DNA of 64,000 nt from Candidatus Magasanikiibacteriota bacterium (GTDB lineage Bacteria; Patescibacteriota; Patescibacteriia; Magasanikbacterales; GWA2-37-8): contig CAWJAS010000002.1 of NCBI GenBank assembly GCA_963840935.1, positions 71,333-135,332 on the forward strand. Reading direction: 5' to 3'. A program made the translations under genes and the position numbers. The notes beneath the pieces are model-generated. The model did no database searches. It saw nothing but the letters and a program-made list of their open reading frames with translations, and had not been told where the DNA came from. The first letter of the stretch is position 1. The number at the start of each line of letters is the position of its first letter. Of this stretch, positions 51,533-54,035 are shown piece after piece.

Positions 51533-54035
51533 ATGAAAAACGCGCAAGATAAAATGTCATTTGGAGAAAACGTCGGCAAATTGATTGACGCGCCGATTGC
51601 CGAAGAAGTAAAACAATCATATTTGGAATACGCCATGAGCGTTATTGTTTCGCGCGCCTTGCCCGATGTACGCGACGGTTTCAAACCAGTACACCGCAGA
51701 ATTATGTATGCCATGTGGGATATTGGACTCAAACACACTTCCAAATACCGCAAATCCGCCCACGTGGTCGGTGAGGTAATGGCCAAATATCACCCGCACG
51801 GCGACGCGGCTATTTATGATTCCATGGTGCGTATGGCGCAGGACTTTTCCATGCGTCAAGTATTTGTGGATGGCCAAGGTAATTTTGGTTCAATGGACGG
51901 CGACAGTGCCGCCGCCATGCGTTACACCGAAGCCAAACTCGCTTCACTGGCCGAAGAAATGCTTTTTGATATTGATAAAAACACGGTTGATTTTATTTCC
52001 ACTTATGACGGTTCCCATAAAGAACCGGCGGTCTTGCCTTCCAAAGTACCAAATCTTTTGCTTAATGGGACGATGGGTATTGCTGTCGGCATGTCCACCA
52101 CCATTGCACCTCACAATCTTGGTGAACTTTGCGATGGTGTTATCATGCTCATAAAAAATCCCAAAACAACCATCGAAGACTTAACCGAAGTAATTAAAGG
52201 CCCTGACTTCCCGACTGGCGGAATTATTTACAACAAAAAAGATATTGCCGGCATGTATGCCACGGGCAAAGGCGGAATTGTACTTCGCGCCAAAGCGGAA
52301 ATCCACGAAGCCAAAGCCGGGCATTTTCAAATTATTGTTACTGAAATCCCCTACCAAGTGAATAAGGCGACCCTGCTCGAAAAAATCGCCGGCTTGGTCC
52401 AAGAAAAAAAGCTGGAAGGAATTAAAGACCTGCGCGACGAATCAAACAAAGACGGGGTTCGCGTGGTGGTTGACCTTAAAAAAGATTCTTACCCCAAAAA
52501 AATTTTAAATCAACTTTTTAAAATAACCGAACTGCAAACTACTTTCCACTCCAACATGCTGGCATTGGTTGATGGTATTCAACCACGAATTTTGAATTTA
52601 AAAACCATTTTGGAAGAATTTATCAAACACCGCCAAGTGGTAATCCGCCGACGAACCGAATTTGATTTGGCCAAAGCCAAAGATCGCGCCCATATTTTGG
52701 AGGGTTTAAAAATGGCCTTGGATAAAATCGATTTGGTCATCAAAACCATCCGCGCTTCCAAAGACAAAGACGAAGCAAAAATCAATTTGATCACCAAATT
52801 CAAATTTACCGACCGCCAAGCGACCGCCATTTTGGAAATGAAATTGCAACAACTGGCTAATTTGGAAAGCACAAAAAATTGAAGATGAATTAAAAGAAAA
52901 GAAAGCAATAATCAAAGAACTGGAATCAATACTCGCTTCTGAATCAAGAATTTTAAGTATTATCAAAACCGAAACTGAGGAAATAAAAGACAAATTCGCC
53001 GAACCAACGAAGGACACAAATTGTGGCGCACGGCATTAAAGAATTCACGGTTGAAGATTTGGTACCGAACGAACCGACCATTATTATGACGACAACCGAC
53101 GGTTATATCAAACGATTACCGCCAGACACTTTCCGCCAGCAATCACGCGGAGGCAAAGGAGTCATCGGAGTTACTACCAAAGAAGAAGAATCGGTGGACA
53201 TGCTTCAAATGACCAATACGCACGACAATATTTTATTCTTTACCAATCGTGGGCGTGCCTTCCAACTTATGGCCTATGATATTCCGCAAGGAAGCCGAAC
53301 AGCCAAAGGCCAAGCTTTGGTCAACTTTTTGCAATTGGCGCCAAACGAAAAAGTGGCGACCATGCTCGCTATGGCCAATATGACTGACGCGAAATATTTG
53401 GTAATGGTGACCAAAAAAGGTTTGATCAAAAAAACATCTCTTGAAGATTTCGCCAATGTCCGTCGTTCCGGTTTGATCGCCTTGAAACTAAAAGGCGATG
53501 ATTCAATGGAATGGGTCAAACCTTCGTCGGGCAAAGACGAAATTAGTATTATTACGCTAAAAGGCCAGGCTATTCGTTTTGAAGAAAATGATGTGCGCCC
53601 GATGGGAAGAACCGCGGCCGGTGTTCGCGGTATTCGCCTTCACGACAAAGACGAAGTGATTTCCATGGATATTGTCGACCCAAGTAATAAAAATCTTGAA
53701 CTTTTAACTAGTGGGCGAAAACGGCATGGGCAAGCGAACTGGCATTATCGCAATACAAAGTACAAGGCCGAGGCGGAAGCGGAATTAAAACAGCCGAAAT
53801 CACGCAAAAAACCGGCAACCTGATTCACGCTTGTTTGGTTGATGGCTCAAAAGAAGATAATTATGATTTATTACTGATGTCAAACAAGGGTCAGACAATC
53901 CGCCTGCCGTTAAAAGCGGTTTCTGTATCAGGCCGAGCCACTCAAGGCGTGCGTTTGATGCGATTCAAAGAAGAAAGCGCCAAAGTAGCCAGCGTCACTT
54001 TGATTGAAAATACCAACGGCGAAACTCTGGCATAA
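51533..54035 (+). CDS. gyrA: DNA gyrase subunit A. The reading frame is interrupted by four apparent +1 indels (frameshifted: pseudogene or assembly errors)
   Basis: The N-terminal 449 aa are canonical GyrA ([37 protein letters not shown] active-site Tyr, HPHGD). The homology continues in successive frames: [12 protein letters not shown]..., [19 protein letters not shown]..., ENGMGKRTG.., [39 protein letters not shown].. Breaks are at about 52875, 53005, 53710 and 53741. ORF-track pieces are 51533..52882, 53023..53823 and 53835..54035. Confidence 0.85.

Follow-up and report, generated by a model that had tools for sequence, protein, structure and literature searches.

Four single extra bases interrupt gyrA in a Candidatus Magasanikiibacteriota metagenome-assembled genome: probable local consensus errors in an ordinary gyrase A gene

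Introduction

Bacterial GyrA is described by the family models TIGR01063 and NF004043, and deviations from a single reading frame, as they are discussed herein for a gyrA gene, are known from very different contexts. Programmed +1 frameshifting occurs in prfB at the site CUU UGA C, in the yeast elements Ty1 and Ty3, and in antizyme, and bacterial genes under relaxed selection lose their frames as pseudogenes in the course of reductive genome evolution. In long-read consensus sequences, frameshifts are caused by insertions and deletions (indels), and similar strains can be collapsed into one consensus (PMC9262707; PMC8302730). Here we describe a stretch of 64,000 nt from a metagenome-assembled genome (MAG) of a Candidatus Magasanikiibacteriota bacterium (contig CAWJAS010000002.1; this whole stretch is referred to as the window), in which the gyrA gene at 51533..54035 on the forward strand changes its reading frame four times by single extra bases, and in which the nearby rnc gene changes its frame once. 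Judged from the state of the two genes, the most likely explanation, to which we assign a probability of roughly 0.8, is that both are ordinary genes and that five spurious bases were inserted in a local patch of the MAG consensus. The DNA of the cell itself would lack these five bases.

Reading frame and repair of gyrA

GyrA homology is unbroken over 51533-54035 of the forward strand and passes through frames 2, 0, 1, 2 and 0 (start coordinate modulo 3), as seen in the list of open reading frames (ORFs), in a three-frame translation of 52780-54040 and by tblastn. A preliminary description of this DNA had already followed GyrA through three reading frames and had counted four +1 shifts within about 900 bp; the continuity is borne out by translation, Pfam and tblastn, and the shifts span 871 bp, with one extra base each. 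The three-frame translation leaves exactly one base to skip at every transition, and with four single-base deletions an uninterrupted gyrA ORF of 2499 nt and 832 codons is obtained, whereas the deposited sequence does not form a single uninterrupted frame, as it changes frame four times and falls into five pieces (Table 1).

The repaired protein of 832 aa reaches 1137.1 bits with NF004043 (cut-off 902), which it matches end to end (profile positions 4-796 of 798), and 1094.8 bits with TIGR01063 (cut-off 877), and parC models score below their own cut-offs on it. In Pfam searches with the individual pieces, DNA_topoisoIV (PF00521) is found on the first and repeats of DNA_gyraseA_C (PF03989) on later ones. 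The motifs AAMRYTE and QQSRGGKG, which we take to be the GyrA active-site motif with the catalytic tyrosine and a GyrA-box-like motif, respectively, can be read directly in the repaired translation. The best explanation for the gene at 51533..54035 is that it represents an ordinary single-piece gyrase A gene, which, judged by its sequence, would be functional. No second gyrA or parC was found within the 64-kb window.

The comparison with orthologs from sibling genomes, which the preliminary description had proposed as a check, supports the repaired frame: the siblings are intact and syntenic, and at each of the four sites gyrA is in frame in 85 of 85 related loci. Among intact GyrA proteins, P0001 and P0002 come closest, with 97% identity (Logan assemblies SRR26786801-3); other close ones are P0161 (JGI 3300005077) and the intein-bearing P0003, with 93% identity (JGI 3300037046). 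The loci of all four are syntenic with the window.

Table 1. Features of gyrA and rnc in the window, with the positions of the extra bases
Feature	Coordinates	Strand	Description
gyrA segment 1	51533..52869	+	Codons 1-445; winged-helix/tower region with AAMRYTE; DNA_topoisoIV 1.9e-156, profile 1-398/432; 97% amino-acid identity to sibling L083
Extra base 1	52870	+	C in GAA AG[C]A CAA AAA ATT; relatives read E-R-Q-K-I
gyrA segment 2	52871..53003	+	Coiled-coil region, next frame; tblastn frame 3, 100% to repaired protein, 91% to L083
False stop	52880-52882		Reached by the frame of segment 1 if unrepaired
Extra base 2	53004-53007	+	Within GAA-CCAA-CGA; C53004/5 or A53006/7 (alignment with L081, L083, L084, L085 and L001)
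gyrA segment 3	53008..53707	+	Start of the C-terminal beta-pinwheel, QQSRGGKG; DNA_gyraseA_C, 4 repeats, 4.6e-49
Extra base 3	53708-53710	+	Within TTA-A[CTA]-GTG; C53708, T53709 or A53710
gyrA segment 4	53711..53739	+	About 10 residues, 29-32 nt between shifts 3 and 4; frame-2 translation, tblastn high-scoring segment pair in frame 2
Extra base 4	53740-53742	+	Within CGA-AC[TGG]-CA; T53740 or G53741/2
gyrA segment 5	53743..54035	+	Last pinwheel blades; DNA_gyraseA_C; 97 aa 100% identical to L083
True gyrA stop codon	54033-54035	+	End of segment 5
rnc (RNase III)	58020..58782/58785	+	Broken by extra base 5, a single-base insertion at 58544-58548

In the source record, the gyrA fragments appear as separate proteins, and the 266-aa piece in segment 3 is the protein P0132 (139,278-bp contig, NCBI and ENA), an annotation that identifies the record as an automatically annotated MAG. 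Could these fragments be genuine, i.e. could gyrA be naturally split into several polypeptides that assemble? The 266-aa piece has a GTG start with AAGGA upstream, but this apparent ribosome-binding site simply represents conserved Arg-Arg codons. The breaks disrupt the coiled-coil leading to the C-gate as well as a blade of the pinwheel, the segments overlap in frames that have no starts of their own, and the gene is split in none of the relatives. A naturally split gene is practically out of the question, as the anatomy excludes it already because two of the pieces would have only about 45 and about 10 residues.

Placement of the four extra bases

The first extra base had been thought to be an additional A in an A6 run at about 52875. 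This was a misassignment: in the nucleotide alignment, the run AAAAAA is present and in frame in five of five aligned relatives (GAA AG-A CAA AAA AT), and because all of them share the run without the C of the window, the extra base is C52870. A slippage at this homopolymer, be it ribosomal or transcriptional, was considered and is ruled out, since the relatives carry the same run in frame. At sites 2-4, the alignment resolves the placement to within 2-4 nt. Relatives read TTGA-TAGTG, CTAA-CCGTG or TTAA-TAGTC in the region of the third extra base, and AAC-GGCA, CAC-ATCC, AAC-CGCT or TAC-TGCT in the region of the fourth. Conserved residues confine the shifts to 1-4 nt (AG[C]A, CCAA, A[CTA]G and AC[TG]G), and a run of more than two bases needs to be extended at none of the four gyrA sites.

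A different possibility is that the extra bases are real and are bypassed during translation. Full-length GyrA and RNase III would in this case be made by four and one +1 events, respectively, either by quadruplet decoding or by +1 frameshifting, e.g. at ACU-A and ACU-G. All five events are indeed +1, a notation of ACT with one skipped base after it suits sites 3 and 4 alike, and the sequence ACT AGT G at site 3 bears a loose resemblance to the yeast Ty3 site GCG AGU U. However, 0 of 85 relatives change frame at one of these four gyrA positions, the sites thus being not conserved, and they have no slippery or stop-codon motif in common; when the four shift points were compared by eye with the known motifs, neither a re-pairing P-site codon nor a stop codon was recognised. 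Between sites 3 and 4, there is neither a 0-frame stop that would trigger a shift nor a recognisable stimulator. Other ACT codons of the window are read normally, their genes being intact, and four low-efficiency events in series would leave hardly any full-length copies of an enzyme that is essential. Our literature search gave no report of such recoding in gyrA or in Patescibacteria. We therefore regard recoding as highly improbable.

The rnc lesion and the state of the remaining window

A lesion of the same type is present 4.8 kb away in rnc, where one inserted base leaves pieces of 176 aa and about 78 aa. In tblastn, residues 1-176 of the 254-aa sibling protein map to frame 3 and residues 171-254 to frame 1, with the break at about 58544, and in the nucleotide alignment the window reads CCA[G]AAAATCC versus CCA-AGAATCC in siblings. 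The two halves cover positions 1-158 and 162-217 of the 219 positions of the NCBIfam RNaseIII profile. The contrast that had been drawn between a broken gyrA and clean surroundings was therefore overstated, as rnc is also broken, but it holds insofar as the damage is limited to 52.9-58.6 kb.

Altogether, five frameshifts were detected in the window, all of which are +1 insertions in the range from 52870 to 58544. If the events were placed uniformly, a cluster of four of the five within 871 bp would have P=5e-5, and one of all five in 5.7 kb P=3e-4. When every ORF from the 85 related loci, which correspond to about 41.5-64 kb of the window, was used in tblastn searches, three places were flagged, namely gyrA sites 1-2, gyrA sites 3-4, and rnc; FtsH, S1, L32 and NusB are intact in comparison with siblings. 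The first 41 kb, which lie outside the related loci, were checked by Pfam domain coverage and by the length and continuity of ORFs only, and the checks applied to the two parts revealed no further frameshift in the 64-kb window. Pfam domains are completely covered in UvrA, which is itself partial at the window edge, and in RNase J, MiaA, MiaB, ThrRS, a DsbA-like protein, a solute-binding protein, an HD protein and several glycosyltransferases. The giant ORF of 10,989 nt at 26757..37745 on the reverse strand, which encodes 3662 aa, is uninterrupted, as had been stated before.

Selection on the repaired gene

A gene that has been decaying for some time should have left the range of its functional counterparts, and this was assessed with the ratio of non-synonymous to synonymous substitution rates (dN/dS), calculated according to Nei-Gojobori for the codons of the repaired frame that follow site 1. 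The ratios are 0.043, 0.031 and 0.030 versus three siblings; when intact siblings are paired with each other, the same codons yield 0.021-0.032. Over the 704 nt from site 2 to site 3, the window differs from L083 by 30 synonymous and 3 non-synonymous changes, and the mismatch track of gyrA has the period-3 pattern that is expected under selection. Aligned with 120 full-length relatives, the repaired protein departs privately from none of the columns with at least 95% conservation, while intact controls have 2-9 departures; its two departures in total from such columns are both common to the closest siblings. Deletions, larger indels or nonsense substitutions were not seen in gyrA. These sequence data argue strongly against a decaying pseudogene. 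After a first frameshift, the later three would have been neutral and would have needed time, so that neutral substitutions would be expected, and none are seen. If the insertions were real mutations, the lack of neutral substitutions would require them to be essentially simultaneous and extremely recent.

Such recent mutations could stem from a mutation shower in a single error-prone repair event, or they could belong to a defective sub-lineage that dominates the reads. In either case, gyrA and rnc would represent newly formed pseudogenes, and the gyrase function would have to come from another copy or would be lost in a dying lineage. It speaks for this explanation that the extra bases stand in the deposited sequence and outside long homopolymers, that a tight cluster would also be expected of a single error-prone synthesis tract, and that rnc is dispensable in many bacteria. 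However, gyrA is essential and normally single-copy in the small genomes of Patescibacteria, and the window contains no second gyrA or parC. There is neither a non-synonymous excess nor a private change at conserved columns, all 85 relatives are intact, and four frameshifts in one gene without any substitution, deletion or stop are unusual for decay. Real and very recent insertions are thus unlikely.

The preliminary description had listed three options for the broken gene. Two of them, a localised assembly or polishing error and population heterogeneity that is collapsed into a consensus, overlap and are favoured here, whereas the third, a decaying gyrA, is disfavoured by dN/dS, by the conserved columns and by the rnc lesion.

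Allelic variation at the gyrA locus

In a sliding identity profile, the flanks of L083 match the window with 97-100% identity, and inside gyrA (51546-53346) the value is only 82-89%. The gyrA block of L083 is in turn 90-96% identical to that of the intein-bearing locus L084, versus 82-86% in the flanks. This pattern indicates, on the level of sequence identities, an exchange of gyrA alleles between lineages, which may possibly be linked to intein homing by co-conversion. A mosaic or chimeric origin of the window gyrA itself was considered and rejected, as it is L083 that carries an L084-like block, and the window allele is merely distinct. Downstream of gyrA, at 54.1-56.6 kb, the siblings are much more divergent.

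The gyrA genes of some close relatives contain an intein (PF14890), and the window allele has none. In L084 (10001-13672; P0003), the intein interrupts gyrA close to the active-site region, at the equivalent of about position 51890 of the window, and L066 and L069, with gyrA matches of about 3.6 kb, are likewise counted among the intein carriers.

Many short GyrA fragments of 155-260 aa are also found on other ENA and NCBI MAG contigs of 60-590 kb (P0127, P0128, P0130, P0135, P0148, P0153 and P0154), and in L086 (ERZ1286166 contig_6661) the fragmentation extends from gyrA to FemAB and a Lactamase_B_3 gene. Interrupted gyrA calls thus recur in deposited long-contig MAGs of Patescibacteria.

Origin of the extra bases

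How could five extra bases enter such a short part of a sequence? Several observations point to an indel artefact: the removal of single bases restores a full-length protein that is conserved across the junctions, an unrelated gene, rnc, has a lesion of the same type, the repaired gyrA bears no sign of decay, the relatives are in frame, and the five lesions are all clustered +1 insertions. The extra bases would arise during consensus building or polishing, in a patch that is locally poorly supported, and the poor support could stem from low coverage or from a mixture of reads contributed by coexisting strains with different gyrA sequences. All five insertions lie in a stretch of 5.7 kb (52.9-58.6 kb), in which they flank the strain-variable segment at 54.1-56.6 kb.

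Short-read data of two samples are of interest in this context. Proteins identical to FtsH of the window and to its 143-aa neighbour are encoded on same-strain Logan contigs from two independent assemblies, of the samples ERR15459710 and ERR12035938, and both contigs stop 258 nt into gyrA (86-aa partial product), short of the sites of the extra bases and close to the point at which the nearest sibling goes from 97-100% to 82-89% identity. This common end point suggests a branch in the assembly graph that is caused by co-occurring gyrA alleles. Taken together with the recombination between the L083 and L084 lineages and with the divergent region at 54.1-56.6 kb, the end point hints at heterogeneity at the gyrA locus.

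Several points weigh against a consensus error. Typical Nanopore consensus errors are homopolymer indels (PMC9262707), and the insertions in the window lie outside long homopolymers. The earlier view that non-homopolymer indels are atypical of sequencing error is therefore justified with respect to such typical errors, but it leaves room for consensus errors of other kinds. The unpolished long-read relative L086 shows diffuse damage across neighbouring genes and no tight cluster, although this locus has too much noise and divergence to be compared base by base as a model of the error pattern. The distances of the five insertions to the nearest substitution are 12, 1, 2, 5 and 2 nt, and a link to polymorphic positions reaches only P ~0.06. 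Sequence of the same strain across the sites was not found by exact protein look-ups with the 449-aa fragment, FemAB, NusB, the alkylation-repair protein and P0132; searches with the repaired-junction proteins gave no same-strain fragments, the best matches having 87% and 85% identity; and pattern scans of JGI metagenome contigs, which tolerated the presence or absence of the extra bases, were empty.

We also considered that each insertion might represent two alleles of a single-nucleotide polymorphism that were written side by side. By eye, this fits sites 2-4 and rnc, but with the P ~0.06 given above and with site 1 not fitting the close relatives, it is kept as a hypothesis and not claimed.

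Other features of the window

Directly downstream of gyrA, a tRNA-Arg(CCG) gene is encoded on the opposite strand (54086-54160, reverse strand). In the sibling L081, an 85-aa ORF was called over the homologous tRNA-Arg region, which is probably spurious.

Further downstream, a region of about 870 nt (~55580-56450) has stop codons in all six frames and a GC content of ~50%, compared to 40% in the genome. It is conserved at the nucleotide level in siblings (77-90%), and its 54-nt core (56323-56376) is 98% identical in the distant L001. The z-scores of the minimum free energy are -5.4 for the forward and -4.5 for the reverse strand. Rfam families do not match the region, even at E<=1, and gene callers place ORFs of 190-223 aa without Pfam match there in the siblings. 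By these sequence features, the region is a candidate for an unclassified large structured RNA.

In another part of the window, at 22415-24217, 1.8 kb are occupied by overlapping ORFs of 120-190 aa on both strands, none of which has a Pfam match.

Implications

The case is mainly one of quality control. gyrA serves as a universal marker in single copy, and it is commonly used for phylogenies and as a drug target. Four spurious bases suffice to let pipelines report pseudogene fragments, and with the 266-aa P0132 such a fragment has already entered public protein databases. A fragmented gyrA lowers completeness estimates, and in a reduced genome of the Candidate Phyla Radiation (CPR) it could pass for gene decay. 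We recommend using the repaired 832-aa sequence in place of the deposited fragments and flagging the record. In the curation of MAGs, clustered non-homopolymer insertions beside a strain-variable segment constitute a useful warning sign. Should the bases be real, the importance would be far greater, as an essential gene would be lost or recoded, and in case of recoding, a CPR bacterium would use a strain-specific, efficient, non-canonical +1 decoding of essential genes.

Comparison with known systems

With bacterial GyrA as defined by TIGR01063 and NF004043, the repaired gene shares the equivalog match, both domains, the motifs, and a locus that is syntenic with intact sibling gyrA; it is the deposited ORF that differs, as it is interrupted four times. 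With the pseudogenes that arise under relaxed selection during the reductive evolution of bacterial genomes, the gyrA of the window has in common that a housekeeping gene contains several frameshifts, but its dN/dS is unchanged, private changes at conserved columns are absent, and there are no deletions or nonsense mutations. The programmed +1 frameshifting of prfB, Ty1/Ty3 and antizyme is similar in its +1 direction and in the fact that the old frame meets a stop soon after sites 1 and 2. The gyrA sites differ from those systems in being conserved in 0 of 85 relatives, in having no common motif, in being four in series, and in having no stop or stimulator at sites 3 and 4. In comparison with the indel errors of MAG and long-read consensus sequences, as they are measured by the IDEEL test and addressed by frameshift-correcting tools such as proovframe, the window is unusual in that there are only five events in 64 kb, which are all insertions, involve no long homopolymer and are clustered in 5.7 kb; it agrees with them in that adjacent ORFs lie in different frames, that the frames are repairable, that more than one gene is affected, and that the fragments have been annotated.

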